From: Patescibacteria group bacterium
GTDB lineage: Bacteria > Patescibacteriota > Microgenomatia > UBA1406
Length of the DNA: 64,000 bases
NCBI GenBank assembly: GCA_041665145.1
Contig: JBAYJK010000002.1
Span: 40,339 to 104,338, forward strand
Reading direction: 5' to 3'
Below are positions 706 to 49,246 of the stretch, one piece after another. Each line of letters begins with the position of its first letter. Positions within the stretch are counted from its first letter, which is position 1. The notes under the pieces were generated by a model. That model did not search any database and had not been told where the DNA came from. It saw nothing but the letters and a program-made list of their open reading frames with translations. The translations under genes were made by a program, and so were the position numbers.

Positions 706-1635
706 ATGTCTCTTCACGAAGCCGTACTGCAGTTTCTGGAATACTGCGAACTTGATCGGAATCTTTCCCAACGGACAATCCGGATGTATGGATACTACCT
801 GAACTTTTTTTCTGAATGGGCGCAAAAGAATTTTCCGGATGACGTGACGGACGTGACAAAGATCTCTGACCAACATTTGAGACGCTTTCGATTATATCTC
901 TCTCAAGTGTATAAAAATCAGTACAAGGGTCCGCTCAAGCGACAGTCGCAAAACTATTTTCTGATAGCGTTGCGGTCATTGCTGCGGTTTCTTATTCGTG
1001 AAGAGGTTTCGGTTATGTCACCGGACAAGATTGATCTCGGAAAAACACGTGATCGGGACATTAAATTCTTAACTCCGGAAGACCTTAACCGCTTATTCCA
1101 AACACCGAACGTCAAACGTGTTCAAGGACTCCGCGATCGCACTATTCTTGAGGTTCTGTTCTCAACCGGTTTGCGTGTCAGTGAGCTTGCCGGTTTGAAT
1201 CGCGATCAGGTAAATGTGGAACGGGGCGAATTCGGCGTTATCGGAAAAGGCGGAAAAGCCCGGGTTGTTTTTCTTTCCAAAAACGCTATCGAATGGCTGA
1301 ATCGCTATATGCAAACACGAAAAGATCCGTCACCTGCAGTGTTTATCCGTTATAAAGGGAAAACAGCGGAGTCACCCGAAAAACTTCGCCTTTCACCCCG
1401 ACAAATCGAGCGCCTGGTCGACAGATACCGCATCACTGCCGGAATTACTTCGCGGATCACCCCGCATGTATTGCGTCATTCGTTTGCAACCGACCTCCTG
1501 ATGCATGGCGCAGACCTCAGAAGCGTCCAGGAAATGCTGGGACACAAGAATATAGCGACAACCCAAATATATACCCACGTCACCAACCCTCATTTGAAAG
1601 AAGTTCATGAAAAGTTCCATAGCGGTAACAAGTAA
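706..1635 (+). CDS. xerC: tyrosine recombinase, XerC/XerD family
   Basis: 309 aa. The C-terminal catalytic region is HVLRHSFATDLLMHGADLRSVQEMLGHKNIATTQIYTHV, with an N-terminal core-binding domain. TATAAT at 694-699 lies 6 nt before the ATG. Confidence 0.9.
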   Translation: MSLHEAVLQFLEYCELDRNLSQRTIRMYGYYLNFFSEWAQKNFPDDVTDVTKISDQHLRRFRLYLSQVYKNQYKGPLKRQSQNYFLIALRSLLRFLIREEVSVMSPDKIDLGKTRDRDIKFLTPEDLNRLFQTPNVKRVQGLRDRTILEVLFSTGLRVSELAGLNRDQVNVERGEFGVIGKGGKARVVFLSKNAIEWLNRYMQTRKDPSPAVFIRYKGKTAESPEKLRLSPRQIERLVDRYRITAGITSRITPHVLRHSFATDLLMHGADLRSVQEMLGHKNIATTQIYTHVTNPHLKEVHEKFHSGNK

Positions 1636-6844: not shown

Positions 6845-8486
6845 GTTTGTATATTTTTAATAGACTTTTCAAAATAGTAACTGCTGCCTCAAACTCCGGT
6901 TGAAACAGATACTCCACCCCAAGCGCCTTCAAATGCCGCATATGACTTGTTAAATGGGAACGCGTAATGATGCGTATTTTAGGGTTTAAGTGTTTTGCGG
7001 TAAGAATAATCTTTTCCTGTTCTATTGGATCAGGCAACGCTATAATCAAAAACTGTGCACGTTCCGCTTGTGCGTAGGACAACAAATCAGGCTCTGTCGC
7101 ATCACCATACAAAACTTTCACACCCTTCTCTTTCAATTTGTGAACCGTTTCTTTGTTAGTGTCGATAACTACAACCGGTATATTACTTAAAAGCAGACCA
7201 TGACCGACATACGCGCCAACTCTCCCGTATCCGCAGATGATTATATGGTCAATTGCTTCGGGAGACACCGATTTGAGATTTTCTTGCTCCGTGACTGCCA
7301 TTCCCGGTGAGGGGAGAAACTTAAGCAACTTCTTATCAATCAGATCATACAGTCGGTGTTTATATTGGTACAACAGAGAGAATATCAACAGTGACCAAAT
7401 AACCACCATCAGAAAAAACTGGTATTCATAGGGCTTTAGCCACGCGCTTGTCCCCAAAAGTGACAGAATGACAAACGAAAACTCGCCCACCTGCATTAAA
7501 TCAAAACTTACCCAGAATGCGGTTTTTTTATGATATCCCATGAAGAAAATAATCCCTGAAAGCACAGTAAACTTGATTAGCATAATCACCACTGCAAACA
7601 AAAAAGAAAAAACGAGTAGCGGCAAGGTAATGATAGTAATGTATGTGCCGAGGAAAAAGAAAAATAGCACCAAGAGAATATCACGAAATACGCGCACCTG
7701 GGAAAATATCTCATGCTGCTCTATCCGGTGTGCAAGTATGGCGCCGACCAAAAAACCTGCTGTTGTTTCCGGGATGGAAAGCCGGGTAAAAAGCCACAAT
7801 GAAAAAAAGAGTAGAGCAAACGTGAAAAGCGCCAACTCTTCCCTATTGAAATGGCTCAACACGAATAGTTTATCCATAGCAACAATACTGACGAAATATA
7901 CGACACCCAATACCAGGATACTTATCCCGCTATTGATAATAGGAGTCGTAATTGAGCCGCCGCCGTTACTGATAAACGCAGTCAATACCGTAATGACCAG
8001 GACGGACACAAGATCTTGAATAATAAGTATTCCCAAAGTCGTGCTTCCGGTCCGTGACGTACCTTCGCCCTGTTCATTGAGCATCTTTCCCACAATAGCC
8101 GTAGATGAAAGTGCAAGCGTAACAGACAATACAAGTGCAAGAAAAAGATTGTGAAATAGAACCACAATGAACACAAATATCCCCAGAGAGGTCCCCGCCA
8201 TCTGCAGTGCGGCAATCTTGTATACGTTTGCCCCTTTGCGGATTATCGCATACAGCGGTGATTCGAGTCCGACTGTAAAGAGGAGAAGCACGACACCGAG
8301 CGTTGCAAGCGGCTGAAGAAATTGTTGGGTCAGAAGCGGTGTCTTGACTACGTTGCTTACAATCACCCCAAGTAATATGAAGGAGAGCAGCGTCGGTTTA
8401 TTGAGTTTTTTGGATAAATATGCACCACATAACGCAAGAAATAAAATAAAGGAAAGCGGTAAGAATGTTTCTGTCCACCCGATCAT
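6780..8486 (-). CDS. CPA2-type cation:proton antiporter with a C-terminal TrkA-N/RCK domain (Kef-like)
   Basis: 568 aa. About 12 TM segments of the Na+/H+ exchanger type, followed by a Rossmann motif HIIICGYGRVGAYVG. Confidence 0.85.
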   Translation of the reverse strand: MIGWTETFLPLSFILFLALCGAYLSKKLNKPTLLSFILLGVIVSNVVKTPLLTQQFLQPLATLGVVLLLFTVGLESPLYAIIRKGANVYKIAALQMAGTSLGIFVFIVVLFHNLFLALVLSVTLALSSTAIVGKMLNEQGEGTSRTGSTTLGILIIQDLVSVLVITVLTAFISNGGGSITTPIINSGISILVLGVVYFVSIVAMDKLFVLSHFNREELALFTFALLFFSLWLFTRLSIPETTAGFLVGAILAHRIEQHEIFSQVRVFRDILLVLFFFFLGTYITIITLPLLVFSFLFAVVIMLIKFTVLSGIIFFMGYHKKTAFWVSFDLMQVGEFSFVILSLLGTSAWLKPYEYQFFLMVVIWSLLIFSLLYQYKHRLYDLIDKKLLKFLPSPGMAVTEQENLKSVSPEAIDHIIICGYGRVGAYVGHGLLLSNIPVVVIDTNKETVHKLKEKGVKVLYGDATEPDLLSYAQAERAQFLIIALPDPIEQEKIILTAKHLNPKIRIITRSHLTSHMRHLKALGVEYLFQPEFEAAVTILKSLLKIYKRDKDEIKKHIHYLKIEHGMAS

Positions 8487-8504
8487 ACAACCATTATAGT
8501 TGTT

Positions 8505-8864
8505 TTACTTTTTTGCGCAATCTATACACAGCACTGCAAGCGGATTTGTGGTTAGTCTGTCTGTGTTGATCATTTTTCCGCACTTCTTACAATATCCGTA
8601 CGAACCGTTGGCGATGCGCTTTAAAACTTCATCGATCTCCGTTATACGTTTTTTTAAGGATTCGCGATTTGCCTCGGTCTGTTCATGTGCCATCTCTTCC
8701 CTAACCTCGTTAATCACGTCCGCATTATCATTCGCGTGATCAGGGTCCTTAAATGGATCGCCTTCATCAAGCTGTTTAATTCGTTTGGCAATATGGGCAC
8801 GTTCTTTTTTAAAAAATTCCTCAACCTCGCTCAGCACTTTTTTAGGATACCCTGCGTCGTTCAT
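8505..8864 (-). CDS. DksA/TraR family C4-type zinc-finger protein
   Basis: 119 aa. The C-terminal CKKCGKMINTDRLTTNPLAVLCIDCAKK follows an acidic helical region. Confidence 0.8.
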   Translation of the reverse strand: MNDAGYPKKVLSEVEEFFKKERAHIAKRIKQLDEGDPFKDPDHANDNADVINEVREEMAHEQTEANRESLKKRITEIDEVLKRIANGSYGYCKKCGKMINTDRLTTNPLAVLCIDCAKK

Positions 8865-9568
8865 TTAGATATCTTGTGTGAACTAATAATAACTACCGCT
8901 GACCAGATCACTACATAAGCCAGAACTGCGAGCATAATCATTTGCTCAATTCCGATGAGTCGAAAGCCAAGTAAGTATACCGTGTCGCGTTTAAAAAAGT
9001 CAATAATGAAAAGTGTCAACGCTTCAAAGCCGACAAAGCAGTTGAACAGCAATGCCGATGGCAATTTGTTCTGCTTGGAAATCCGGAGAATATAGTATGC
9101 ACACCCCGCTCCCACAAACATGATGACAAATCCGTACAGGTAGAAAGGTGCAAATGAAGTAATGAAAGACAATACGAGTAACATCAGTTTGGCAACAAAC
9201 AAAGGCATAATAAGCAGCTTAATAATCAGCAGGTAGTCGAGTTTATTCTTGTGAGAGTAAATCCATAAACTTCCCAAGAAACCGAGAAGAAATGCGCTTT
9301 CAGTAACTCCGGGATACACAAAGAGCAAAACAGTTTTTATCCACGCACTGCTGAAATCTGAGAGATGCAATAAAATAAACGCTACCCTGCCGAGCAATAA
9401 CCCGATCACACTCGAAGCGAAAAGAATGTCGATCATCTTTTCTTCCTGTAAGGCGCTGCGCTTTAATTCTCTCCAGAATAAAAAGAGAACAACGGTCAAC
9501 ATGACAACGACGCCGACACCATATACATATAAGTGCAAACCGAGATACGTCGCCAAGACTTGTTTCAT
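8861..9568 (-). CDS. polytopic membrane protein, Lgt-like N-terminal region (divergent)
   Basis: 235 aa. The N-terminal pattern LHLYVYGVGVVVMLTVVLFLFWRELKR...IGLLLGRVAFIL resembles prolipoprotein diacylglyceryl transferase. I cannot see the later Lgt G-rich motifs. Confidence 0.35.
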   Translation of the reverse strand: MKQVLATYLGLHLYVYGVGVVVMLTVVLFLFWRELKRSALQEEKMIDILFASSVIGLLLGRVAFILLHLSDFSSAWIKTVLLFVYPGVTESAFLLGFLGSLWIYSHKNKLDYLLIIKLLIMPLFVAKLMLLVLSFITSFAPFYLYGFVIMFVGAGCAYYILRISKQNKLPSALLFNCFVGFEALTLFIIDFFKRDTVYLLGFRLIGIEQMIMLAVLAYVVIWSAVVIISSHKISK

Positions 9569-9594
9569 AGGTTATAATTATACAGGAAAAACAA

Positions 9595-9689
9595 GACTTA
9601 AGCCCAAATAATTAAGATTAAATAAAGCTTGAATATTTAAGCTTAAGGCTTTATTAAATATTTTTACTTAAGTATTTAGCCTTAATCTT
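9595..9689. repeat. CTTAAG/GCTTAA-type word-repeat array
   Basis: cttaagcccaaataattaagattaaataaagcttgaatatttaagcttaaggctttattaaat... The same word family occurs at 35095-35165. Confidence 0.7.
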
Positions 9690-9759
9690 GCCGGGGTGGT
9701 GAAACCCATGTACCACGTTGGGTACAGGGCCGTGAACCCCAGTGGTTCACGGTGGTATA
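9690..9759 (+). pseudogene. 5' fragment of tRNA-Leu (positions 1-22) split by a 48-nt structured insert in the D-loop
   Basis: gccggggtggtgaaa (15/15 identical to 10025-10039), then cccatGTACCacgttGGTACagggCCGTGAACCccagtGGTTCACGG, then tggtata (7/7 identical to the tRNA). Confidence 0.6.
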
Positions 9760-9764
9760 GCAAT

Positions 9765-10022
9765 ATGTATTATGTATACGTTTTGAAATCTGTTGTAGAT
9801 GACAGAATCTATATAGGACAGACAGGAGACCTTAGAAGAAGGTTTAAGGAGCACCAAGCGGGCCGTGACTATACGACCAAAAAATATGGTGGTGTCTGTC
9901 TTATATTTTACGAAGCCTTTTACAGTAAAATTGATAGTATACGCAGAGAAAAGTACTTTAAAACAAGTAAAGGAAAAGTAAGCTTGAGATTGATTACACG
10001 AGAGTCAATGATACACAAGTAA
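9765..10022 (+). CDS. small GIY-YIG (URI-domain) nuclease family protein
   Basis: MYYVYVLKSVVDDRIYIGQTGDLRRRFKEHQAG... carries the GIY-YIG signature. I start at the ATG at 9765, because the track start at 9696 would read through the tRNA fragment. Confidence 0.8.
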   Translation: MYYVYVLKSVVDDRIYIGQTGDLRRRFKEHQAGRDYTTKKYGGVCLIFYEAFYSKIDSIRREKYFKTSKGKVSLRLITRESMIHK

Positions 10023-10024
10023 TT

Positions 10025-10108
10025 GCCGGGGTGGTGAAATGGTATACACGCAGGTTTTAGGAACCTGTGACTGCTAAAGTCGTGCGGGTTCAAGTCCCGC
10101 TCCCGGCA
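10025..10108 (+). tRNA. tRNA-Leu (anticodon TAG), type II with a long variable arm; CCA not encoded
   Basis: Acceptor gccgggg/tcccggc, anticodon arm caggt-ttTAGga-acctg, variable arm tgactgctaaagtcgt, T arm gcggg-ttcaagt-cccgc. Confidence 0.9.
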
Positions 10109-10123
10109 CAGAAGTAACTATCT

Positions 10124-10184
10124 GGTTCAAGCCTGCCCGCAACGCCGCAGCGTAGCGAGGCGAGCGGGTCCTCTCCCCGGCACA
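10124..10184 (+). pseudogene. 3' fragment of tRNA-Leu (T-loop plus acceptor end) split by a GC-rich palindromic insert (family B)
   Basis: ggttcaagcc, then tgcccgcaacgccgcagcgtagcgaggcgagcggg, then tcctctccccggcaca. The end matches the tRNA 3' end ctcccggcaca, and ccccggc is a perfect complement of the 5' gccgggg. Confidence 0.55.
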
Positions 10185-10218
10185 AGAAATGCTTAGTGAG
10201 TACTCGAGCTGGGTAGAA

Positions 10219-11562
10219 TTAAAAATTAGCTTCCCGTTCTTCCACTTCAAAGAATCGTAATTGATCACCTTTGAACATAAAGTCTACTTCACCTGTAGGT
10301 CCGTTCCGGTGCTTTGCAATTCCGACTTTGATAGTTTTTCTTCCTTCTGGCATCAGTTCGTCATCATCATCGGTCCGATACAAAAACATGACAATATCGG
10401 CATCCTGCTCTATTGCACCGGAATCACGAAGGTCGGAAAGTTGCGGTTTCTTCTCACCGCGTTGCTCAACAGACCGAGAGAGCTGAGAGAGAGCAATTAC
10501 CGGAACCTTCAATTCACGTGCAATATTTTTCAGCGATTGCGAAACATACGAAACTTCCTGCACACGGGAATCTGTTTTTTTACCCGGATCCGCAAGCTGA
10601 AGATAGTCCATGATAATAAGGTCAAGTTTTTTTTCAAATTGAAGTTTGCGGGCCTTTGTCCGCATTTCATGCACGGTAATGCCGGGAGTATCATCAATAT
10701 ACAGGTTCGCGTCAGCCAACCGTCCCAAAGCTTCCGTCACTCTTCCCATTTCATCAGGGTTGAGTTTCCCAGTCCGTAATCGCCATGCGTCAATTTGAGC
10801 TTCCATTACTAATAAACGATCAACAAGTTCTTCCTTACTCATTTCGAGAGAGAAAAACCCGACAGATTTCTTCTCCTCCAAACACAAATAATTCGCGATG
10901 TTGAGAGCAAATGTTGTTTTACCGATACTCGGGCGGGCGGCAATCACGATAAGGTTTGAGGGGTTTAACCCAGCCAGTTTATTGTCCAGCTTATGGAACC
11001 CCGTGGCAACACCCCGCATACCGGCACCGCTTTTGATTGCTTCTTCTAAACGCTCATAGCTCGATGTCAGAATGTCTTTTATAGGAATAAAATCCCGTTT
11101 AACATTTTCCTGGGTGAGAGAAAATATGGTTCCTTCAGCTTTGGACAACAATTCATTGACATTTCCTTCATCGTTGAACGCTGAACGGACAAGATCCGAT
11201 CCGACCGTAATAATCTGCCGCTTAAGTGCGGATTCACGTACTACCTTTGCATAGTTTTCAATGTTCGCGCTCGTCGGTACACTTTCAATAAGCTGGGAAA
11301 AATATTCTTTTCCACCGGTATCTTTCAGCGTTTTTTCTTTCTTCAATTCATTTGAAAGAGTAAGTATGTCTATGGGCTGATTTTCTCGGTACAAAGCGAG
11401 CATTCCTTCATAAATCAGCTGGTTCTCCCTAAAATAGAAATGAGCTGATTTCAAAATCTCAGATACTAACGAGATTGAGGATGGGTCAATAAGTACGGAG
11501 CCTAAAACCGATTGCTCGGCTTCCTGGTTGTGCGGTGGCAGTTGTGTGTTTTCGTTGGGCAT
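10219..11562 (-). CDS. dnaB: replicative DNA helicase DnaB
   Basis: 447 aa. PPHNQEAEQSVLGSVL N-terminus, Walker A ARPSIGKTTFALNIA, and IIMDYLQL, SQLSR motifs. Confidence 0.95.
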   Translation of the reverse strand: MPNENTQLPPHNQEAEQSVLGSVLIDPSSISLVSEILKSAHFYFRENQLIYEGMLALYRENQPIDILTLSNELKKEKTLKDTGGKEYFSQLIESVPTSANIENYAKVVRESALKRQIITVGSDLVRSAFNDEGNVNELLSKAEGTIFSLTQENVKRDFIPIKDILTSSYERLEEAIKSGAGMRGVATGFHKLDNKLAGLNPSNLIVIAARPSIGKTTFALNIANYLCLEEKKSVGFFSLEMSKEELVDRLLVMEAQIDAWRLRTGKLNPDEMGRVTEALGRLADANLYIDDTPGITVHEMRTKARKLQFEKKLDLIIMDYLQLADPGKKTDSRVQEVSYVSQSLKNIARELKVPVIALSQLSRSVEQRGEKKPQLSDLRDSGAIEQDADIVMFLYRTDDDDELMPEGRKTIKVGIAKHRNGPTGEVDFMFKGDQLRFFEVEEREANF

Positions 11563-11573
11563 GACGGAAGCAA

Positions 11574-11690
11574 TAGTTTCTAATTTCTAGTTTACAGTTT
11601 CTGTTAAGCTGTTTAATTCAAAATATCCGTCGGAGAAAACCCAGCAATTAGAAACTCAATGGAAACTAGTAATTATAAACTAGAAACTTA
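11574..11690. repeat. AGAAACT/AGTTTCT-type word-repeat palindromic array
   Basis: Left arm tagtttctaatttctagtttacagtttct, right arm ttagaaactcaatggaaactagtaattataaactagaaactta. It overlaps the stop codon of the MBL gene. Confidence 0.75.
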
Positions 11691-12327
11691 ATAGAACTAC
11701 TTCCTTCTCCGGCAACGTATCCGACTTTAGTTCAAGTTTGTCGACCGGTTGCAGACTTTCTACGCCCATGAGTGTCAAAAATTCTTTCACCGGTAGCAGA
11801 TCTTTAAACGCTTCCTGATTCAAACGTGGATCGTTGAAATGCATCGGAATGATAATTTCAGGATTTATGAGATTCACTATTTTCATTGCTTCTTTCGGAC
11901 CGATGGTATAAAAGCCACCGACAGGCAACATCAAAACGTCAGTATCTTTTAATGACTCCATAATTTCTTCGTTCGGAATATGCCCGAGATCTCCGCAGTG
12001 AGTAATGGTTATGCCTTCGAGAAGTATTTTGAAAATAATGTTCTCGCCGCGATCTGCACCGTTTTTATCGTCATGCGAAGTTGCATAACCGAAAACACGG
12101 ATTCCTTTGTGTTCATATTCCCCTGGAAAGTCAAAAACAAGCTTACCTTCCCCACCGACAACCGCAACATTATTATGATCTAGATGTTGGTGAGACACGG
12201 TAACCAAGTCTGCTTCCACCTTGGGAAATTTTAAACCGACATCTTTCGGTTCAAACGGGTCGGTTACAACAGTCCCGTTTTTTGACTTAATTAAAAAAGA
12301 CGAATGACCCAAGTACTGGATTTTCAT
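11680..12327 (-). CDS. MBL-fold metallo-hydrolase (UPF0173-like)
   Basis: 215 aa. MKIQYLGHSSFLI..., the HxHxDH motif SHQHLDHNN, and a later CGDLGH. Confidence 0.8.
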   Translation of the reverse strand: MKIQYLGHSSFLIKSKNGTVVTDPFEPKDVGLKFPKVEADLVTVSHQHLDHNNVAVVGGEGKLVFDFPGEYEHKGIRVFGYATSHDDKNGADRGENIIFKILLEGITITHCGDLGHIPNEEIMESLKDTDVLMLPVGGFYTIGPKEAMKIVNLINPEIIIPMHFNDPRLNQEAFKDLLPVKEFLTLMGVESLQPVDKLELKSDTLPEKEVVLLSF

Positions 12328-12405
12328 ATGGGGAGTGTACCAAAATTAAGCTAAAAGTCAAAAGATTAAAGTTGTAAGTTACGGCTTGTGCTAGAATTAC
12401 AAATA

Positions 12406-13815
12406 ATGAAGCGTGAAGCACATACAAAAAGTGTAACGGTATACCTCTATAACGCAATTGAAGATGAATGGCCATTTCTTCAGGCAACTTCAGATAAGAA
12501 AACACAGAAGATTGAAATAAATGATTGTTACGAGGGTGCAGAATGTTTTTTGTATTTCAATACCGAGCAGAATGACTTGATGTACGTTACCGGCAAGCCG
12601 ATCAGTAAAGAATATATTGAATATTACCAAACATTTGTCGGGAAGAAAAACGTCGAAATAATTGTTCCTCTCCCAAAAACAGGACAAATTTCCCTCGATC
12701 TCTTGGAAGACAAAAAAACTTTTAATCAGTTTATAGCACGATTAAAAAGTTACGACCTCATCACGATAAAAGTATACTCAGCGTCCCCACAGTTTTATCA
12801 ACTGCTGGACAGATTGTCGGAACTTAACCTTCCCCTATCCGCTCCCGAAGCACCGTTACCCAAGAACGCGTGGACAGTAAATTTTTTTGGCAGCAAAGTA
12901 GGGTTTCGTCAACTTTCACAAAAATATAGCGGAGCTGGCAACTTATTCCCTATGCCTCGGGGGTATATTTGTCCAAGCAGAGATGACGCTGCAAGGATAG
13001 CTGCAAAAATATTCACGGAAAAACGTGGTGTCGTCATAAAAACAAGCAAAGGAAATGAGGGAAACGGTGTTCTCATTTTTTTTGAGAATGATCTTCCCTA
13101 TTCATATGCTGCCTGTACGAAAAAAATCAGTGAAATACTGCGTATGAACGCATACTGGGAAAAATTCCCCATCGTCGTTGAAGAACTTATTGACGTTGAT
13201 AAAAACATCGGTGGTGGTTTCCCGAGTGCAGAAGGGCGGGTCACGAGCGGAGGAAAACCGGAATTTCTTTATTATTGCGTCATGAGGGTCACTAAAAAAG
13301 GGGCGTTTTACGGTGTAGAAATTCATAATTCGTTGCTTGATACTCATATCGGAAAGCAAGTTACGGACATTACGTTAAAGGTTGCCAAAGAATATGCCCA
13401 GGAGGGATACCGCGGACACTTTGATGTAGACTTTCTCGTTGATAAAAAAGGGAAAATCTTCGCGAATGAATCAAACACCAGAAATAACGGGTCATCTGAT
13501 GTCGCAAAACTTGCCGTAAAATTTTTCGGCCCCAACTTCCCGGACAAAACATATTTAATAAGTTCGTTCAGAAATATCACATTCACCGGCTCGCGCACAT
13601 CCGTACGTTTTGCAGAGATCGTTTCATTTTCAACACCCATTCTTTTCAGTCATACAACAAAGGAGGGTGTCATGTATAACGGCGCTTTTATTCTGAACAA
13701 CAAAGAACTTTTTTACACCGTATTCGCTCCGAACAAACAAGCGGCATATCGCTACGAAAAAAGAATGGCCGAGATTTTTTTGGGGCACGACATGATACTT
13801 ACTGATCCAGAATAG
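12406..13815 (+). CDS. ATP-grasp fold protein (peptide/carboxylate-amine ligase-like), specificity unknown
   Basis: GVVIKTSKGNEGNGVLIF, IVVEELIDV and GHFDVDFLVDKKGKIFANESNTRNNG match the ATP-grasp core pattern. Start moved to the ATG at 12406, 8 nt after TGcTAGAAT (12389-12397). Confidence 0.55.
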   Translation: MKREAHTKSVTVYLYNAIEDEWPFLQATSDKKTQKIEINDCYEGAECFLYFNTEQNDLMYVTGKPISKEYIEYYQTFVGKKNVEIIVPLPKTGQISLDLLEDKKTFNQFIARLKSYDLITIKVYSASPQFYQLLDRLSELNLPLSAPEAPLPKNAWTVNFFGSKVGFRQLSQKYSGAGNLFPMPRGYICPSRDDAARIAAKIFTEKRGVVIKTSKGNEGNGVLIFFENDLPYSYAACTKKISEILRMNAYWEKFPIVVEELIDVDKNIGGGFPSAEGRVTSGGKPEFLYYCVMRVTKKGAFYGVEIHNSLLDTHIGKQVTDITLKVAKEYAQEGYRGHFDVDFLVDKKGKIFANESNTRNNGSSDVAKLAVKFFGPNFPDKTYLISSFRNITFTGSRTSVRFAEIVSFSTPILFSHTTKEGVMYNGAFILNNKELFYTVFAPNKQAAYRYEKRMAEIFLGHDMILTDPE

Positions 13816-13901
13816 GCTTTCACAACACTCTGTTATTATTCCATAAATTGTCATTGACATTTACAGGTGCGATTGTTAATGTATATATCTTGTATAAAAA
13901 C

Positions 13902-14978
13902 ATGACAGACTCATCATACTCTTTGGACGACGAACCTTCAGGTACAAAGAAAATTAAAAGCAAGATAACGGTAGCCTTTTTATATAACACTACCCACATT
14001 ATTCCTACGGTAAATGATCCCCGTTCACAACTTCAAGCCGATTATGACGAACCTCAGGCAATAGATTTAATGGTTGGTCATTTGAAGAACAATGGATACG
14101 ATGTCATTCCTATCGAAGCAAATGAAAAAGCTTACTTGGAATTATATAAGAGAAAAAAAGATATTGATATTGTTTTCAACATCGCCGAAGGCCCCCATGG
14201 CCACGACCGGGAACTGCAGGTTCCTGCGATGCTTGAAATGTTGCAGATACCGTATACCGGATGCACTCCCCTTACCCAGGGAATTTTGTTGAACAAGGCA
14301 CGCACCAAAGAAATACTGGCCGCGTACAAGATTCGTACACTACCGTTCATGTTGATAAAAAACGGAACGATTGATTGGAATATGCCCAAGGAGTATCCGT
14401 TGTTCGTAAAGCCCAATTCCCAGGGCTGTTCGGGTGGGATAACACAAAACAGCATCGTGCATAATGAAACAGAATTAAAAGCGCAAATTAAGTACCTGAG
14501 AACAGAGCTGGGGCAAGATTCCATTGTGGAGCCACTGTTAACAGGTCGTGAGTTTACCGTTCCGATGCTTGGAAATCCTCCCCGCGTACTCCCGATTATT
14601 GAGACTAATTTTTCACGTCTTCCCAAGGGATACGCAGCAATTGATTCGTTGGAAGTTAAATGGGAACTTGATGTTGCACCCGGAAAAGGCCTTATGGATT
14701 GCCCGGCAGATATAAGTAAAAAATTGCACAGTGAGATTGAGGATTTGTGCTTGAGAACGTGGAGCGCACTTCGGGTTCTTGATTGGTGTCGGATTGATGT
14801 GAGGTGCGACAGCAAAGGAACACCGTATGTTTTGGAAGTCAATTCCCCACCGGGAATAACACCGCCGGAAAATGCAGTTTCCAATTTTCCCTTTAGTGCA
14901 AAAACCGCAGGACTCGATTACGAAGCAATGCAAAAAGCAATCATCGAAACTGCCCTCAAACGTTACGGAAAGATATAA
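13902..14978 (+). CDS. D-alanine--D-alanine ligase family ATP-grasp protein (not in a mur context)
   Basis: DIVFNIAEGPHGHDRELQVPAMLEMLQIPYTGC, LNKARTKEIL, YPLFVKPNSQGCSGG, IVEPLLTGREFTV, RIDVRCDSKGTPYVLEVNSPPG. Confidence 0.7.
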   Translation: MTDSSYSLDDEPSGTKKIKSKITVAFLYNTTHIIPTVNDPRSQLQADYDEPQAIDLMVGHLKNNGYDVIPIEANEKAYLELYKRKKDIDIVFNIAEGPHGHDRELQVPAMLEMLQIPYTGCTPLTQGILLNKARTKEILAAYKIRTLPFMLIKNGTIDWNMPKEYPLFVKPNSQGCSGGITQNSIVHNETELKAQIKYLRTELGQDSIVEPLLTGREFTVPMLGNPPRVLPIIETNFSRLPKGYAAIDSLEVKWELDVAPGKGLMDCPADISKKLHSEIEDLCLRTWSALRVLDWCRIDVRCDSKGTPYVLEVNSPPGITPPENAVSNFPFSAKTAGLDYEAMQKAIIETALKRYGKI

Positions 14979-14989
14979 CCACTTAAACC

Positions 14990-15514
14990 ATGACGAACGC
15001 ATACCCAGAACACACATGGTGGATTCCCTGCCTTTATGTTAAAAAATCTGCGCTTCACGGTAACGGGATATTTACCAAACAAAAAATCAAAAAAGGAGAG
15101 AAAATAATGGTTTGGGGTGGGCAGCTTTTCAAAAAGAACGATTACGAACGTGCTCGCCCACCAACTATCGTGCCCTTCGACCACAGGCATTACATCGGAT
15201 TACCCGTGTCTGATGACAGCGAGTCCATTGACGAGTACTTAAACCACTCTTGCGACCCCAATACGTGGATGACGGATCAGATAACCATGGTCGCCAGACG
15301 GGATATTGAACCCGACGAAGAAATTACACTGGATTGGGTTATGTGGAACAGTGATGAATGGGAAATAAGCAAAAGTGGGAAGTGTTTTTGCTCCAGCAAG
15401 AATTGCCGAAAATACATAACTCCAACCGATTGGAAAATTCCTGAATTACAAAAAAGATACGCGGGTCACTTCTCTCCTCTGGTTCAGGAAAAAATTGATG
15501 CCGATTCTAAATAA
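14990..15514 (+). CDS. SET-domain protein (putative protein lysine methyltransferase) with a Cys-rich post-SET region
   Basis: 174 aa. HGNGIFT..., NHSCDPN, EEITLDW, CFCSSKNCRKY. Confidence 0.8.
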   Translation: MTNAYPEHTWWIPCLYVKKSALHGNGIFTKQKIKKGEKIMVWGGQLFKKNDYERARPPTIVPFDHRHYIGLPVSDDSESIDEYLNHSCDPNTWMTDQITMVARRDIEPDEEITLDWVMWNSDEWEISKSGKCFCSSKNCRKYITPTDWKIPELQKRYAGHFSPLVQEKIDADSK

Positions 15515-15559
15515 AGGCAGATTCTTTGGTAATAACGAATGTTACCAACAAAGAACCTG

Positions 15560-15580
15560 CCCCCGCCTCTAACGGCGGGG
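15560..15580. terminator. GC hairpin between convergent genes (possible bidirectional terminator)
   Basis: cccccgcc-tctaac-ggcgggg. It is preceded by a second hairpin tctttggtaa...ttaccaacaaaga at 15523-15554. Confidence 0.45.
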
Positions 15581-15607
15581 ACAAGGCTACTACTGATTAA
15601 GTTTGGT

Positions 15608-17218
15608 TTACCGTCGCACCGCCGACAGATACATCTGATGCACCGGCGTGTTGTACCAGGTGAACGGGATATACCCGTTCGGGCCGATCGACGCTGCGAA
15701 CCAACCGGAGGGCCGGCAGACTGCCTGACCGCCGGCGATAATGGTCGTCCGGAACTGTGTGGTGACCGTGCCTTCAGGCGGCACAACCACATAGAGTTCC
15801 AGGAAGTGCGCCTGCCCGCATCCGTTCGGGCTCGGAGAGGCCGGCGGATCCAACAAAGTCACGCTGGTTGTAATCTCTGTCCGGTTGTACACAGTAGCCG
15901 TCATCGTGACAGTGCCCGAGTACCCCAAGCTTGGGGCCCCGAACACCGGGACATTGACGCCCACCAGTGGCCCGAGGGGCAGCGATTCAAATGTAACCAC
16001 CCACTGCCCTGCTTCCCTGGCCATGTACCCGAACTCGATCGTAGTCGCTGTCGTCGCACACGCGACATGCGCCGGCATTACCTCAGCGACCGTACTGGTG
16101 AATTCCCAGCCTGCCGCCACATGCGTGGCATCATGCAGGCTCCAATCTTCAAGCACTGGCCCTGCGGAACCAACTAGCGGCTCCCCGTTAGTGAAGAGCG
16201 CATACTGCCCACAAGCGCTCACATTGTAAGCCTCCCCACGTACTTGAGGCTTGTTTGTCAGTTCCAATTTCCACGCCTGACTCTTGAACTCTTCGGACAA
16301 CACCTTGTTCGGACCAATTTCACCGAACGTGCCCCACACACCACCTTGGCGGGTGGAAAGCCACAGCTTGCCGGCAAACGTAACAGAGATACAGCGCCCG
16401 AGTAGGCACTGGCCTTCTCCCAGCCCATCCGGCAAAGCCGGGACGGGCTGGACCATGTCCCGCGACTTGCCCGATTCGAGCATGTGGGAGATGTGGACGA
16501 CCTGCCGAGTGCTGATGTTGCTGACGTACGTCAGCCCCACTCCGAGCTCAGTCGTCTCTGCGAGCCGCGGCATGAGTTGCCCGGCGGGACCGGACGGGTC
16601 GGCAGCTTTCTCGGCCGACCAGCTTCCATCAAGCTCGCGGACACGGTATCGCACCGTTCCGTCCAAGGAGTACGCGACGACCACGCGGCCGTCGGTCAAC
16701 TGCAAAGCGCTCGTCCCTTCCGGCAGATTATCATTCATACTACCGGACAGTTTCGTGAGCAACCAACTTCCGTCGCCAATTTCGGCCGTCCAAAGACCGA
16801 TGTCCGGCGAGCTACCCTTCGCCAGCACGAACAAAATCGGCTGACAATTCTGGAAAGCAATTGCTTCGAGCGAAACATTGAACTCATAGTATAGGGGGGT
16901 AATTGGGGCCAACCCAAATTCTCCCTTGTGAAAAACGGCCGGAAATGTCCGGCCCGCCGTAACGTTCGTGACTCCGCCCCAAACGCCTGCGCAGGCGTCG
17001 GCGGCCAGGATCGGTTGCACTTGATCCCCTTCTTGGGCGTCCAGCCCGGGGGCCACAGGCAACTGCAACATGAGCGGCTTATTCGGCGCCGCCACAGCCG
17101 TCGCGACCGAAGCCGCAAGATTGCACAGCTTGAACCCGATAACTAACGCCAGCACCGCTGGCGCCGTGAGGATTAACCGCCCCCACCGCGTTCGAACAAG
17201 AAACCGTCCAAGTCCCAT
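15608..17218 (-). CDS. high-GC foreign-looking gene: N-terminally anchored/secreted protein with Asp-box-like (DGSW) motifs, possible beta-propeller
   Basis: 536 aa with a hydrophobic N-terminus GRLILTAPAVLALVIGF. IGDGSWLL and ELDGSWSAEK resemble BNR/Asp boxes. Hand counts of 60-nt samples inside gave 60%, 63% and 75% GC, against 38-52% in flanking genes. AGGAGG lies 4 nt upstream of the ATG. Confidence 0.75.
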   Translation of the reverse strand: MGLGRFLVRTRWGRLILTAPAVLALVIGFKLCNLAASVATAVAAPNKPLMLQLPVAPGLDAQEGDQVQPILAADACAGVWGGVTNVTAGRTFPAVFHKGEFGLAPITPLYYEFNVSLEAIAFQNCQPILFVLAKGSSPDIGLWTAEIGDGSWLLTKLSGSMNDNLPEGTSALQLTDGRVVVAYSLDGTVRYRVRELDGSWSAEKAADPSGPAGQLMPRLAETTELGVGLTYVSNISTRQVVHISHMLESGKSRDMVQPVPALPDGLGEGQCLLGRCISVTFAGKLWLSTRQGGVWGTFGEIGPNKVLSEEFKSQAWKLELTNKPQVRGEAYNVSACGQYALFTNGEPLVGSAGPVLEDWSLHDATHVAAGWEFTSTVAEVMPAHVACATTATTIEFGYMAREAGQWVVTFESLPLGPLVGVNVPVFGAPSLGYSGTVTMTATVYNRTEITTSVTLLDPPASPSPNGCGQAHFLELYVVVPPEGTVTTQFRTTIIAGGQAVCRPSGWFAASIGPNGYIPFTWYNTPVHQMYLSAVRR

Positions 17219-17612: not shown

Positions 17613-17686
17613 TGGAGCGGGATGCGGGAGTCGAACCCGCCATATCACTTTGGAAAAGTGAAGTTATACCGATTAACTAATCCCGC
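17613..17686 (-). tRNA. tRNA-Gly (anticodon TCC), CCA encoded
   Basis: gcgggat-ta-gttaatcggtataac-t-tcact-ttTCCaa-agtga-tatg-gcggg-ttcgact-cccgc-atcccgc-t-cca. The 3' end is part of a perfect 13-bp palindrome (17589-17619). Confidence 0.9.
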
Positions 17687-17858: not shown

Positions 17859-18743
17859 ATGAGTACTGAATTCGACTTTCTTACCACACCGCGTCGTAGC
17901 TATCCTCCTATTCCAGGAATGAAGTACCGCAGGGAACTCCAACCGTGTAAGGATGTTCTCTTGCAAGCAAAAGGAGCTGCTATTCACCGGGTATGGCTCG
18001 AGTATCTTCGCGGAGCAAAAGTGCAGGGAAACGAGCACCTTATTCCTCTGCTACAACGATTGCAGGAGTTCTACCAGATTGTTGAACACGCCCATATATT
18101 CTGCACACCGGATCAGTTACGAGATTCCGCGCAACGGATCCATCAATTTCTCAATTTCCAGGATCCTCCTCTCTCAACCCTCATTGATTCATTTCAGGAA
18201 CTCGTCGCATGGTACGCACAACAGATTCGAGAAGAATTATTTCGTGAGCCCAATCCTCCCCTCGACTACTACGGATTTTATCGCACAAAACGCGGATTGG
18301 TTAAAATCTGTCTATCAAATAAATTGTTAAGCGAAATCAGCGACCCGAAAGATTACGCACGATTAGGCAGCTGCATGGACGGATACAATCACTTTTCGGC
18401 AAATATCGACCTTCCCGACAATCCGACACCAAAACAACTGATGCGCTACCGTCGTCGTATAGCCGAATGGTTCCGCGAAGCTCAAGAGATTGTGCGACTG
18501 CATACAAACGACAGTTATTTATGGGTAAACCTCATAAATTATCATCAGCAACTGATGCATGAAATACGCAGGCAACCCAATCCTCTGTCATGGGTACAAA
18601 AACTGGGTATAGAGGAAATTCCGCTTGATGCACCGACACAAAGCGAGCTTCGCGAAGGAAAAGCCGAGGTACCCAGCCTTGACGATGAGCTTACGGAAAT
18701 ACTTCGCGAAACAGCAATTCACCTAGGTCGGAAGAAGAAATAA
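17859..18743 (+). CDS. hypothetical protein (orphan, cytosolic)
   Basis: 294-aa ORF, helical and R/Q/H-rich, no motif recognised. Confidence 0.55.
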   Translation: MSTEFDFLTTPRRSYPPIPGMKYRRELQPCKDVLLQAKGAAIHRVWLEYLRGAKVQGNEHLIPLLQRLQEFYQIVEHAHIFCTPDQLRDSAQRIHQFLNFQDPPLSTLIDSFQELVAWYAQQIREELFREPNPPLDYYGFYRTKRGLVKICLSNKLLSEISDPKDYARLGSCMDGYNHFSANIDLPDNPTPKQLMRYRRRIAEWFREAQEIVRLHTNDSYLWVNLINYHQQLMHEIRRQPNPLSWVQKLGIEEIPLDAPTQSELREGKAEVPSLDDELTEILRETAIHLGRKKK

Positions 18744-44304: not shown

Positions 44305-44565
44305 TTATCCCTGGTCCTGCATTTGAAGAAGTTTTCGTGCGGCAATTTCCTGTGTTTTTTTGATAGCCTCGGCGAATGCTTCTGCAATACGGTTCTCTAA
44401 AACTCCGTCTACTTCAATCGATCGGACTTTCTGATCTCCGCTCATGACAATCTTAACGCCGTTACGTTCAATAGTAACTTCTTCCTGTGCGAGTGCATGT
44501 TGCATTGCCTGTGCTTTTTGCTGAAAATCTTTCAAATCACCCATTGCCTTAAAGGGATTAAACAT
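44305..44565 (-). CDS. ybaB: YbaB/EbfC family nucleoid-associated protein
   Basis: MFNPFKAMGDLKDFQQKAQAMQHALAQEEVTIERNGVKIVMSGDQKVRSIEVD. Start at the ATG at 44565. Confidence 0.85.
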   Translation of the reverse strand: MFNPFKAMGDLKDFQQKAQAMQHALAQEEVTIERNGVKIVMSGDQKVRSIEVDGVLENRIAEAFAEAIKKTQEIAARKLLQMQDQG

Positions 44566-44586
44566 GTGATACAATTTAAACTTGTA

Positions 44587-46278
44587 ATGAATAAGACGAT
44601 AAAAAGTATAACACATCACGCAAAAAAATGGTGGGTCGGTTTGCTTGCGGTTATCGCCATTGCACTCGTGTTACGCCTCATCGGACTTGATTGGGATGAG
44701 GGTCACTACCTCCACCCTGACGAACGGTTTTTGGTCATGGTCACCACTGCCTTATCCTGGCCGAAAACTTTGCTTTCATACTTTGATCCGCAAACTTCCC
44801 CACTGAATCCTTATAATCAGAATTACAGTTTTTTTGTATACGGACGATTCCCGTTGATTTTTACAAAGTTTGTCGCCACACTCGTCAACTTGGATAGCTA
44901 CTCCTATCTTCGATTTGTCGGCCGACCGTTAAGTGCACTTTTTGATACTTCAGTTGTACTTGCAATTTATTTTGCAGTAAAAAAGTTTTTGCAGCATTCA
45001 CCAAAGAAACATAAGGTGGCTCTCTACGGAGCACTCATGTATGCCGTGTTCGTCCTTCCCATCCAACAATCTCATTTTTATACGACAGACACCTTTGTCA
45101 CCGCATTTTTTGCATGGTCAATAACAGCGTTAATTTACAACCTTTGGGTTCCCGCCGGTGTGCTGTTCGGATTCGCAATGGCAAGCAAAATTAATGTTGT
45201 ATACGGTCTGCCGCTCATACTTGTCATGATTCTGTTGCAGGTGAAAAAAATCGGTTGGCAAAAAGCAATCTATAACTTGGTTATTTTTCTTGGGACCGCA
45301 TATACCACTTTACGATTTGCTGATCCGTATTTCTTCCAATCTGCCAACCTTTTACTCCCGTTTGTCAATAAACAGGTTCTGGCAAATATAAAAGAACTTC
45401 AGGCTTCGGCATCGCGGGAAGGATTCTATCCACCCGGAATACAATGGCAAACAAAGCAATTTTGGTTCGGCCTGCAAAACATGTTTTTCTTCGGTATCGG
45501 TCCGGTTTTTTTTCTGTTGGCGACTCTCTCACTTTCAAAATTGCGACGTCGCTTCAGATTTACCCACGACAATTTCATTATAACCGCGGTCGTCATCTGG
45601 GTTGCCGGGATGTTTTTGTATCAAAGCTTTCAAATCGTCAATTCGATGCGTTATTTTTTCCTCTTGTATCCCTTTTTTGCTGTCGGTGCAGGATATACTC
45701 TTTCACTGATTACGAGTCGAAGAATACGAGCCGGAATATTTTTTATCGGCTTCATATGGACTGCCGCATTCGTTCATATCTACACCGTTCCCCATTCACG
45801 GGTTACAGCGTCTGTGTGGATGCACCACAACTTCCCTGACCTCAGTACTTTCGCATGGGAAAACTGGGATGACCCGTTGCCGTTACAGCTTCCGAATTCG
45901 ACAAAAACATTCCGTGGTATAGCGCTGGATGTTTTTTGGCCGGAAAGCAAACTCAAGTGGGAAACAATCGCAAAGAAACTTGAGTATTCAGATTACCTCG
46001 TGTTATCCAGTAACCGCGCATGGGGCAGTATTCCCACTTCCCCACACTATCCGGTAGGAAAACGGTATTATGAATTGCTTTTCGCCGGAAAATTGGGATA
46101 TAAAAAAATCGCGGAATTTACCAGTTATCCGACTCTTGACTTCGGAATATTCAGCATTAAATTTCCTGACGACTGGTCGGAAGAAGCGTTTACCGTCTAT
46201 GATCACCCCAAGGTTATCGTTTTCCAAAAAGAACCAAATTTTACCGCTCGACAATTCATACTGAAACTAGAACAATGA
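44587..46278 (+). CDS. GT-C fold membrane glycosyltransferase (GT39/ArnT-like)
   Basis: About 560 aa with more than 10 TM segments and a first-loop motif YLHPDERFLV. Start at the ATG at 44587. Confidence 0.65.
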   Translation: MNKTIKSITHHAKKWWVGLLAVIAIALVLRLIGLDWDEGHYLHPDERFLVMVTTALSWPKTLLSYFDPQTSPLNPYNQNYSFFVYGRFPLIFTKFVATLVNLDSYSYLRFVGRPLSALFDTSVVLAIYFAVKKFLQHSPKKHKVALYGALMYAVFVLPIQQSHFYTTDTFVTAFFAWSITALIYNLWVPAGVLFGFAMASKINVVYGLPLILVMILLQVKKIGWQKAIYNLVIFLGTAYTTLRFADPYFFQSANLLLPFVNKQVLANIKELQASASREGFYPPGIQWQTKQFWFGLQNMFFFGIGPVFFLLATLSLSKLRRRFRFTHDNFIITAVVIWVAGMFLYQSFQIVNSMRYFFLLYPFFAVGAGYTLSLITSRRIRAGIFFIGFIWTAAFVHIYTVPHSRVTASVWMHHNFPDLSTFAWENWDDPLPLQLPNSTKTFRGIALDVFWPESKLKWETIAKKLEYSDYLVLSSNRAWGSIPTSPHYPVGKRYYELLFAGKLGYKKIAEFTSYPTLDFGIFSIKFPDDWSEEAFTVYDHPKVIVFQKEPNFTARQFILKLEQ

Positions 46279-46946
46279 AACTTAAATCCGCTATTCCCTA
46301 CTATATTTCGTCGGTTGTGACGCTTTTAAAAGAAATCAGAAACCGGCACATGATCCCGTTTTTGCTGTTTAAAAAACCGGTCCGTATTATGTTACATAAT
46401 GGCATGAGGTTTGATCTGTTTTCATTTGCCGATTTGTGGACACTTAAAGAGGTTGCTATCGACAAGTGTTACGAACAATACAGGGGCATCGGTAAGAATT
46501 GGATTATTGTTGATATGGGGGCTGGCTTCGGTGATTTCTCCATTATGAACAGCTTTAAATCCAAAAAAATTGTTTCCTGCGAAATTAATCCGCAGACTGT
46601 GCAGCGTTTACGAAACAACATTGCGATTAATCGGGCACCAAACATTGAGATTGCGCCCGTCGGTGCTCATAAGTTACAGGAGCTTTTCCAAACATACAAA
46701 ATCAACTCCTGCGACTTATTGAAAATTGATTGTGAGGGGTGCGAGTATCCGTTACTGTTTACTGCCTCCTCCGACGTACTTAAAAAAGTTAGGACAATTG
46801 TTATGGAATACCATACCTTTGATGAGAGCATGCGAAAACAATTTACGAAGATGATTGCACTACTCAAAAAAGAACATTTCACGGTCACCTATCAAGAGAA
46901 CCCGGTACACACCACATTTGGCATTTTGTTCGCTACCCGAAAATAA
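46275..46946 (+). CDS. FkbM-family methyltransferase
   Basis: IVDMGAGFGDFSI, CEINPQTVQRLRNNI, LLKIDCEGCEYPLL. 4-nt overlap with the upstream GT-C gene. Confidence 0.8.
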   Translation: MKLKSAIPYYISSVVTLLKEIRNRHMIPFLLFKKPVRIMLHNGMRFDLFSFADLWTLKEVAIDKCYEQYRGIGKNWIIVDMGAGFGDFSIMNSFKSKKIVSCEINPQTVQRLRNNIAINRAPNIEIAPVGAHKLQELFQTYKINSCDLLKIDCEGCEYPLLFTASSDVLKKVRTIVMEYHTFDESMRKQFTKMIALLKKEHFTVTYQENPVHTTFGILFATRK

Positions 46947-46961
46947 GCCCAACTCGCTCCA

Positions 46962-48650: not shown

Positions 48651-48851
48651 GGAGGTATTGTACCGAAATCTAGCGAAATTGTTAGATTGTTAAATTGCTA
48701 TATTGCCAAATACCGGGTTGCGAAGGCAATTGTTTTCGGCGACTTGGGAGGGAGCCGTTCTCGGGAGGGGTCCCACGGAGCGTAGAAAACAAGTTGACGA
48801 GCAACACAGTAAAAATACTACATATGATCGAGAAGCGTGTAGAATACGAAT

Positions 48852-49223: not shown

Positions 49224-49246
49224 GCACATTTTGTTATACTGTTTTT

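Follow-up and report, generated by a model that had tools for sequence, protein, structure and literature searches.

Three closely spaced genes on one strand of a Patescibacteria genome are described here. They lie in a stretch of 64,000 nucleotides (nt), referred to below as the window (NCBI GenBank assembly GCA_041665145.1, contig JBAYJK010000002.1, positions 40,339 to 104,338 of the forward strand; lineage Patescibacteriota, Microgenomatia, UBA1406), and encode an ATP-grasp protein (AG1), a member of the D-alanine-D-alanine ligase (Ddl) family (Ddl-A) and a SET-domain protein (SET). An original prediction, made from the sequence alone, had joined all three into one ligation-plus-methylation system. 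Comparison across metagenomic loci points to a smaller unit: AG1 followed by Ddl-A is a truly conserved adjacent pair across Microgenomates, and the trio is not conserved. AG1/Ddl-A is an uncharacterised, lineage-wide ligase module drawn from known enzyme types, with SET as an accessory neighbour.

Layout of the locus

The list of open reading frames (ORFs) confirms the three co-directional genes at the positions in Table 1, with intergenic gaps of 86 nt between AG1 and Ddl-A and 11 nt between Ddl-A and SET. The domain assignments first proposed for them (ATP-grasp, Ddl family and SET) are correct by Pfam and NCBIfam. The same stretch is present without differences in two independent public assemblies.

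Table 1. Positions of the three genes and of the flanking signals, numbered from the first nucleotide of the window
Feature	Position	Strand	Remarks
AG1	12406-13815	+	ATG start, 469 amino acids (aa); ORF list
Ddl-A (Ddl-like gene)	13902-14978	+	ATG start, 358 aa; ORF list
SET gene	14990-15514	+	ATG start, 174 aa; ORF list
TGcTAGAAT, extended -10-like	12389-12397	+	Read from the sequence; ends 8 nt before the AG1 ATG
Hairpin, G+C-rich, 12 pairs	15556-15585		Between the convergent SET gene and high-GC ORF

A terminator scan, which like the promoter scan gave no enrichment over shuffled sequences, found no terminator-like site between Ddl-A and SET. The hairpin downstream of SET is terminator-like on the minus strand and is the probable end of an AG1/Ddl-A/SET transcription unit. 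Given the 11-nt gap and the absence of a terminator before this hairpin, co-transcription of SET with the ligases is likely in the source genome. The extended -10 box that had been proposed for AG1 is present as a string; it has no -35 partner and is not listed by the promoter scan, and the region holds eight promoter-like sites against 9.5 expected from shuffled sequences, that is, no enrichment. For lack of a -35 element and of enrichment over shuffles, the string was given no weight as evidence. If it were used, the AG1 mRNA would be leaderless or nearly so.

AG1 is a predicted PGM1-type ligase

Taken by itself, AG1 gives only sub-threshold domain matches (ATPgrasp_ST, 17.7 bits; YheCD, 16.7 bits). 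Its full-length homologues are 38-52% identical, and the named ones are nearly all from Roizmanbacteria, Microgenomates or unclassified Patescibacteria, the family being essentially confined to Patescibacteria of the Microgenomates type. Across 26 sequences there is no variation at the lysines K212/K215 of the glycine-rich loop, D340, D342 and E355-x-N357-x-R359. The family profile matches PGM1 (3wvq, 4.2e-10), 8ynd, which is an ATP-grasp peptide ligase of Streptomyces (1e-8), and BesA (8yi6, 1.7e-5), and the NCBIfam BesA model finds AG1 weakly (3.3e-4).

The AlphaFold2 model of AG1 has a predicted local distance difference test score (pLDDT) of 87.7 and a predicted template modelling score of 0.87. 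When it is compared with the PDB by Foldseek, the best 19 matches are all 8ynd/8ynq, 3wvq/3wvr or 8yi6, with full-length coverage and template modelling (TM) scores of 0.68-0.73 for the query and 0.71-0.82 for the target; the next matches (biotin carboxylase, PurD and PurK) are below 0.6. The PGM1_C domain exceeds its Pfam cut-off of 22.5 in two AG1 homologues, P0190 (26.1 bits) and P0223 (25.1 bits), and PreAtp-grasp comes close in a third (P0240; 26.2 against a cut-off of 27.5); AG1 of the window has no Pfam match to either domain. Because profile, fold and the PGM1_C matches of its homologues agree, AG1 is best described as a predicted carboxylate-amine (peptide) ligase of the PGM1 type.

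PGM1, from the pheganomycin pathway, couples a non-proteinogenic acid to a small peptide at its N-terminus (PMC8939145). The chemistry of its family, in which the amino group of an amino acid or peptide attacks a carboxylate acyl-phosphate, would be expected of AG1 as well. The similarity of AG1 to PGM1, 8ynd and BesA covers the full-length fold and the profile, at an identity of only 14-18%. AG1 is hosted by tiny-genome Patescibacteria, not by an actinomycete, and guanidino-acid, polyketide and precursor-peptide genes are absent from its vicinity. Also unlike the PGM1 family, AG1 has a Ddl-family enzyme as its conserved partner and often occurs with tandem paralogues. No partner genes for a non-proteinogenic acyl donor or a peptide acceptor were found in the window or in related AG1 loci. 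A precursor-peptide gene for AG1 was considered and rejected: the spacers around the pair are too short or too variable, and the small ORFs form no conserved cluster.

Ddl-A is a divergent member of the Ddl family

Ddl-A matches Pfam Dala_Dala_lig_C at 3.6e-28 and shares this family and the ATP-grasp fold with Escherichia coli DdlB (2dln/1iov) and the Van ligases. Its nearest relatives, like those of AG1, are Roizmanbacteria/Microgenomates proteins. It scores below the cut-offs of the NCBIfam Ddl models (PRK01372, the best, 164.6 bits against 243; TIGR01205, 140.3 against 245.65), and its orthologues reach 186 bits, likewise under the cut-off of 243. In an alignment with a DdlB reference identical in sequence to PDB 1iov/2dln, Ddl-A keeps the DdlB residues K97, K144, E180, E187, K215, R255, D257, E270, N272 and S281.

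Differences are concentrated where DdlB binds its substrates. The first-substrate site was assessed as the triad of the GGxSxE loop (Glu15), Ser150 and Tyr216. Where DdlB has this loop, the N-terminus of Ddl-A reads FLYN, an insertion of about 10 residues and an acidic EADFDDPET motif; H63 is replaced by E and Y216 by a nearly invariant W, and the window protein has a Cys at position 150. The second-substrate loop carries a conserved 5-residue 'PPE' insertion before Ser281, and L282 is replaced by N or Y. A second, more distant class of Ddl-like proteins (Ddl-B; 25-31% identical, 90-115 bits) has the Trp at position 216 and a PPE-type insertion in common with Ddl-A.

An exhaustive search of 1.8 billion representatives with Ddl-A as the query returned 503 clusters (50% identity) at E <= 1e-30, and solved canonical Ddls scored 98 bits at most with the same query. 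Since all these clusters outscore the solved enzymes, Ddl-A is placed in a large clade apart from the characterised ones, in which tandem double Ddl-like proteins of 600-730 aa are numerous. The original prediction had set the Ddl-like gene outside any mur context, and indeed a scan of 36 larger ORFs across the 64-kb window revealed no Mur or other cell-wall synthesis gene. With scores under every curated cut-off and both substrate sites altered relative to DdlB, Ddl-A is probably non-canonical and not a D-Ala-D-Ala ligase proper. The NCBI product name of the protein is D-alanine--D-alanine ligase; applied automatically, this name is unsafe for the clade as a whole, which numbers at least 500 clusters (50% identity).

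The AG1/Ddl-A pair is conserved

The surroundings of AG1 relatives were surveyed in 80 metagenomic loci, 66 of them with enough sequence downstream. Ddl-A lies directly 3' of AG1 on the same strand in 30/66 loci, with gaps of about 5-42 nt, and later in the same array in six others, for a total of 36 of the 66 informative loci; over full-length matches these proteins are 49-54% identical to Ddl-A of the window. The view that the two ligases belong together is upheld by these counts. The remaining arrangements are one or two tandem AG1 paralogues (about 32% and 24% identical; 16/66), an adjoining paralogue on the opposite strand (2/66) and no ATP-grasp gene directly downstream (12/66). Directly upstream of AG1, the second Ddl-like class is found in 10/58 loci.

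Clustering of the neighbours indicates that the flanks of AG1 are otherwise housekeeping synteny, which differs between clades. One block comprises RseP, RRF, EF-Ts, S2, GalU, Tmk and a ClpB-like gene, and another comprises GT39, a CBS protein and PepA. The AG1/Ddl-A pair persists in different synteny types and clades, i.e. it survives rearrangement.

Some arrays have additional members. A same-strand gene for a 239-aa protein stands just upstream of AG1 in five loci (L094, L099, L104, L114 and L120). By eye the protein is similar to CofE (F420-0:gamma-glutamyl ligase) and would be another amide-bond-forming enzyme; F420 synthesis is not expected in these genomes. Three tandem AG1 paralogues, about 41%, 32% and 24% identical to AG1 of the window, occur instead of, or besides, Ddl-A in L086, L087, L088, L095, L096 and L157 (at about 8000-12000 in the longer loci).

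SET belongs to a widespread prokaryotic family

SET matches the Pfam SET domain (PF00856) at 5.8e-14, with 52.8 bits against a cut-off of 22.4. GxG (G24, G26) and N85, H86 and C88 of the NHSCDPN motif are conserved in its family. Across 31 homologues the Cys, Asn and His of NHSCDPN and CxCx4C are invariant, including the post-SET residues C132, C134 and C139, which align with the post-SET region of MLL1. The family profile matches the MLL1 SET domain at 3e-19, post-SET included, and the AlphaFold2 model (pLDDT 92.4) has the SET domains of MLL1-4 as its top Foldseek matches, with BurB also among the fold matches. The fold, GxG, NHSC and the CxCx4C post-SET zinc site are thus common to SET and the MLL/KMT2-type enzymes.

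Prokaryotic SET proteins described previously include Go1-SET, NUE and RomA (PMC3980110), and BurB is a SET enzyme whose methylation substrate is free methionine (PMC12542666). SET differs from these and from the MLL/KMT2 type as follows. The usual catalytic Tyr of ELxF/YDY is missing from most members of the family. The window protein reads E-I-T-L-D-W, the family varies among W, M, S, A, Q, C and Y at this site, and the Trp four residues on is invariant. The family also has a specific C-terminal motif, QxRYxGHFxP, without a counterpart in the other enzymes. The public gene call (P0001) gives a protein of 135 aa that starts at Met40 and is truncated. Because residues 1-39 are conserved in the family (Y5, S20, G24, G26, F28, G36 and E37), the 174-aa reading is right.

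The family consists of proteins of about 175 aa, with 308 homologues and relatives in at least 552 GTDB species genomes. Its members are spread over Patescibacteria, Rhizomicrobium, Chloroflexota, Rokubacteria, Acidobacteria, Zixibacteria and several archaea. SET domains had been taken to be rare in bacteria, with some acting on host chromatin. The first point does not hold for this family, which is widespread in free-living and uncultivated lineages, and the second finds no support here; SET has neither a secretion signal nor a host-associated context. When all ORFs of 80 loci were clustered, no conserved neighbour of the family emerged beyond within-genus synteny, and three further close relatives (50-54% identical) have unrelated gene contexts. 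SET is a predicted lysine-type N-methyltransferase of a widespread stand-alone prokaryotic family. An MLL-like SET plus post-SET family without the usual catalytic Tyr is therefore common in free-living prokaryotes.

SET genes and the ligases across genomes

The 80 best SET loci, with flanks of 8 kb on either side, were examined by sensitive hidden Markov model searches for AG1 and Ddl-like genes. AG1 is present in 0/80 and a Ddl-like gene in 1/80 (L024), so that 79 of these 80 loci have no ATP-grasp gene within 8 kb. Conversely, the SET family of the window is present in 0/80 AG1 loci. By the criterion that accompanied the original prediction, the ligase-ligase-SET unit is refuted by this lack of co-conservation.

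Looser links between SET genes and the ligases do recur. An unrelated short SET is present in three of 82 loci (L164, L154 and L150). L164 is the closest relative of the window module (Ddl-A 73% identical); AG1 and Ddl-A are followed there by a 130-aa SET without post-SET, convergent on the opposite strand and 25% identical to SET of the window over 105 residues. The order in L154 is AG1, Ddl-B, Ddl-A and then, 10 nt further on and co-directional, a short SET, and in L150 the short SET lies three genes upstream of AG1. Long SETs show two cases. In a Chloroflexia locus (L024, 7009-8999) a fusion of 351 aa, which joins a long SET to a RimI-like GNAT (44.7 bits, cut-off 86.4), lies 23 nt behind a Ddl-B-like gene. 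In another Patescibacteria genome, L173 (5001-6124) and L174 (884-2007) have a long SET (50% identical) and a short SET without post-SET in tandem, and a class-B Ddl-like gene 2.2 kb away on the opposite strand.

With the window left aside, two of the three short SETs in AG1 loci stand directly behind Ddl-A, for which simple nulls, applied post hoc, give P of about 0.003-0.005. This value weakens if there are several SET genes per genome and vanishes under looser definitions of 'near'. No SET follows Ddl-A in about 28 of the 30 loci with downstream sequence. We read the link between SET and Ddl-A as a weak recurrent affinity, not a system. The occasional linkage of SETs to Ddl-like ligases and GNATs is a testable lead to the substrate of SET. 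No literature on the AG1/Ddl-A pair or on a linkage of bacterial SET and ATP-grasp genes was found.

Partners of Ddl-A relatives

Outside the AG1 loci, relatives of Ddl-A have other companions. In a Magasanikbacteria locus (L175, 5956-9012), Ddl-B, a Ddl-A orthologue and a KamA-family radical-SAM aminomutase stand in a row. The orthologue is 52% identical to Ddl-A of the window and has all class A hallmarks. The aminomutase scores above the cut-off of the KamA subfamily. It fits the model of AblA, a lysine 2,3-aminomutase, best, but below the equivalog cut-off, and it scores 222 bits against the EpmB model, also below cut-off. In L165 (195-3873) a 702-aa fusion of KamA and a Ddl-A-like protein (P0371) is followed by a Ddl-like-GNAT fusion. 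L166-L168 carry a cluster of a GNAT, an M42 peptidase, a Ddl-A-like protein (43% identical relatives) and an AstE/AspA-like protein, and in other relatives a tandem double Ddl is followed by an S58 (DmpA-type) peptidase. The NAGGN osmoprotectant system was considered for the L166-L168 cluster and rejected, as no NCBIfam NAGGN model matched. No named system corresponds to any of these clusters. Searches for KamA and GNAT were negative in the window and in every Microgenomates AG1 locus.

Enzymes that handle small amino-acid conjugates, unlike those of the cell wall, occur together with aminomutases, acetyltransferases and aminopeptidases or deacylases. The KamA, GNAT and peptidase partners of the Ddl-A relatives thus point to small-peptide or amino-acid chemistry over cell-wall synthesis.

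Comparison with known ligase systems

A pairing of the same general kind is known from the synthesis of mycosporine-like amino acids, where MysC (ATP-grasp) and MysD (D-Ala-D-Ala-ligase-like) each add one amino acid (PMC10666671). Like AG1/Ddl-A, MysC/MysD combines a Ddl-like ligase with an ATP-grasp ligase of generic type, and the mys cluster, too, has a methyltransferase neighbour. The window differs in that no EVS/DDGS cyclase and no class I O-methyltransferase lies by AG1/Ddl-A, and its methyltransferase is a SET protein that is not conserved with the ligases. RizA and RizB of rhizocticin synthesis are likewise ATP-grasp ligases acting in sequence. NCBIfam models for the MysC/MysD and RizA/RizB enzymes gave no match to AG1 or Ddl-A.

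DdlB and the Van ligases differ from Ddl-A in substrate sites and mur context, as described above, and also in company, the partners of Ddl-A and its relatives being AG1, the second Ddl-like class, KamA, GNATs and peptidases. AblA and AblB are a lysine 2,3-aminomutase and a GNAT that make N-epsilon-acetyl-beta-lysine, and neither the AblA/AblB nor the EpmB system is known to include an ATP-grasp ligase. They resemble the present loci in that Ddl-A relatives adjoin, or are fused to, KamA-family aminomutases (best model AblA) and GNATs. They differ in that these aminomutases fall below the equivalog cut-offs, and in the absence of both partners from the window and the Microgenomates AG1 loci.

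Proposed function and alternatives

To our knowledge, no member of the AG1 or Ddl-A family has been characterised. On balance we lean towards a two-gene AG1/Ddl-A module that builds a small peptide as the real unit, with SET as an accessory. In each of the two enzymes, ATP would turn a carboxylate into an acyl-phosphate, which is then joined to an amine. We infer that the two work one after the other, with free amino acids as substrates. The product of Ddl-A would be a dipeptide or an amino-acid conjugate. It may contain a basic or beta-amino acid, which, speculatively, the acidic motifs of the Ddl-A family would suit. AG1 would add a further residue at the amino terminus of the Ddl-A product, and the outcome would be a small cytoplasmic peptide or amide. 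Extra AG1 paralogues or the second Ddl-like class, where present, would lead to longer or different products. SET would have landed directly behind Ddl-A in the source genome without being a constitutive part of the module. It may act on an unrelated protein; methylation of the ligase product is less likely.

Several observations weigh against this proposal. A large share of the AG1/Ddl-A adjacencies falls within one housekeeping synteny block of related Roizmanbacteria-like genomes, and part of the pair count is shared ancestry. The N-terminal alignment of Ddl-A with DdlB is uncertain, so that loss of the Glu15 equivalent is not proven. Finally, SETs adjoin Ddl-A more often than simple chance predicts, and SET may be more than a passenger.

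The last point leads to the alternative that all three genes are one system, in which the ligases build a lysine or beta-lysine peptide or a protein tail and SET N-methylates it, SET (or a GNAT in other lineages) being an exchangeable tailoring module. The 11-nt gap without a terminator between Ddl-A and SET is consistent with this, as are the short SETs behind Ddl-A in L154 (10 nt) and L164, the Ddl-like gene 23 nt ahead of the SET-GNAT fusion in L024, the tandem SETs of L173 with a Ddl-like gene 2.2 kb off, and the low chance estimates given above. Ddl-GNAT and KamA-Ddl fusions tie such ligases to lysine-type chemistry, and BurB provides a precedent for a SET enzyme that acts on a free amino acid (PMC12542666). 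These links must be set against the roughly 28 of 30 Ddl-A loci without a SET and the 79 of 80 long-SET loci without an ATP-grasp gene. The statistics are post hoc and hinge on how many SET genes a genome is assumed to hold, and by our estimate the enrichment is gone when three genes on either side are considered. L164 is convergent and hence no operon, and the region behind Ddl-A is variable, bordering in the window on a foreign high-GC island and a tRNA gene. We regard a single three-gene system as unlikely.

A broader version of this idea, which we hold to be doubtful, is that Ddl-A and Ddl-B, AG1, KamA, GNATs and SETs make up a single unrecognised system with exchangeable components, shared by Patescibacteria and further uncultivated lineages of bacteria. 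Such a system would build and N-modify, by methylation or acetylation, a small peptide based on lysine or beta-lysine, or attach such a unit to a protein. If this were true, the window would hold the SET-tailored version, and SET domains would take part in the tailoring of small molecules or peptides in minimal-genome bacteria. A search for literature on aminomutases together with ATP-grasp enzymes found nothing relevant.

Ddl-A might instead be the lineage's divergent but genuine D-Ala-D-Ala (or D-Ala-D-X) ligase, with AG1 as a cell-wall ligase that adds, e.g., a branch or bridge residue and SET as an unrelated gene. Ddl-A is the nearest relative of Ddl in any Microgenomates locus examined, keeps all catalytic and ATP/Mg residues as well as K215, R255 and S281, and bears the NCBI name of such an enzyme. 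The module is also widespread and stands among housekeeping genes, and genomes of the candidate phyla radiation have been reported with essentially complete peptidoglycan pathways (PMC7143001). The scores of Ddl-A and its orthologues (165-186 bits against a cut-off of 243) argue otherwise, as do the two substrate-site regions, which are unlike those of DdlB in the PPE insertion and the nearly invariant Trp at position 216. No mur gene was found among the larger ORFs scanned in the 64 kb or in the AG1 loci, some arrays have no Ddl-A, and a 52%-identical orthologue stands with KamA and a Ddl-like gene, other relatives having KamA, GNATs and peptidases as partners. A cell-wall role is, in our judgement, rather improbable.

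Least probable of these alternatives is that the ligases are RimK/TTL-like protein-tail ligases, acting for example on a ribosomal protein or translation factor that SET then methylates: the RimI-like GNAT half of the L024 fusion, the presence of rpsB, tsf and frr a few genes away in the main synteny block and the service of KamA-like enzymes in EF-P beta-lysylation (with the below-cut-off EpmB match of the L175 aminomutase) would fit, but the RimK-like modification once suggested for this locus finds no RimK-family match for either ligase (Pfam, NCBIfam, E <= 0.01), the characterised relatives Ddl, PGM1 and BesA use amino acids or short peptides, and the translation genes are neighbours in one clade only and absent from the window. 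A function in anti-phage defence was also considered and rejected, with no PADLOC match for any of five proteins.

Other features of the window

The immediate surroundings of the three genes are DnaB, an MBL-fold protein and the high-GC ORF, and the window further contains RNase J, a release factor, HtrA, CtpA, RadA, CysS, Obg and others. The high-GC ORF (536 aa, 15608-17218, minus strand) lies between SET and tRNA-Gly(TCC) (17613-17686). It has a GC content of 0.60 and a third-position GC content of 0.70, against 0.43 for the window, and a hydrophobic N-terminus, and it has no Pfam, NCBIfam or PADLOC match. Its arrangement occurs in two independent assemblies and is therefore real; by composition and position the ORF is probably a foreign insertion beside a tRNA.

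A small ORF (9696-10022, plus strand) abuts tRNA-Leu (10025-10109) and appears GIY-YIG-like by eye (YVYVLKS...IYIGQTGDLRRRFKEHQ); similar small ORFs (cluster 37) lie near AG1 in L129 and L161. A tyrosine recombinase (706-1635, plus strand) has Phage_integrase and N-terminal SAM-like domains and is probably XerC/D-like or of a mobile element. Large ORFs of 593, 562, 887 and 294 aa, at 44497-51910 and 17859-18743, have no Pfam family at E <= 1e-5 (E <= 0.01 for the 294-aa ORF).

Significance for Patescibacteria

Patescibacteria have very small genomes and almost no biosynthetic capacity, and two to four ATP-dependent amide ligases are nevertheless kept in most of the Microgenomates sampled. That genomes so small retain this set of ligases implies that the product must be something the cells need. 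It might be an osmolyte, a peptide for storage or signalling, a component of the cell envelope or a protein modification. Knowing the product would supply a missing piece in the physiology of a major uncultivated lineage.

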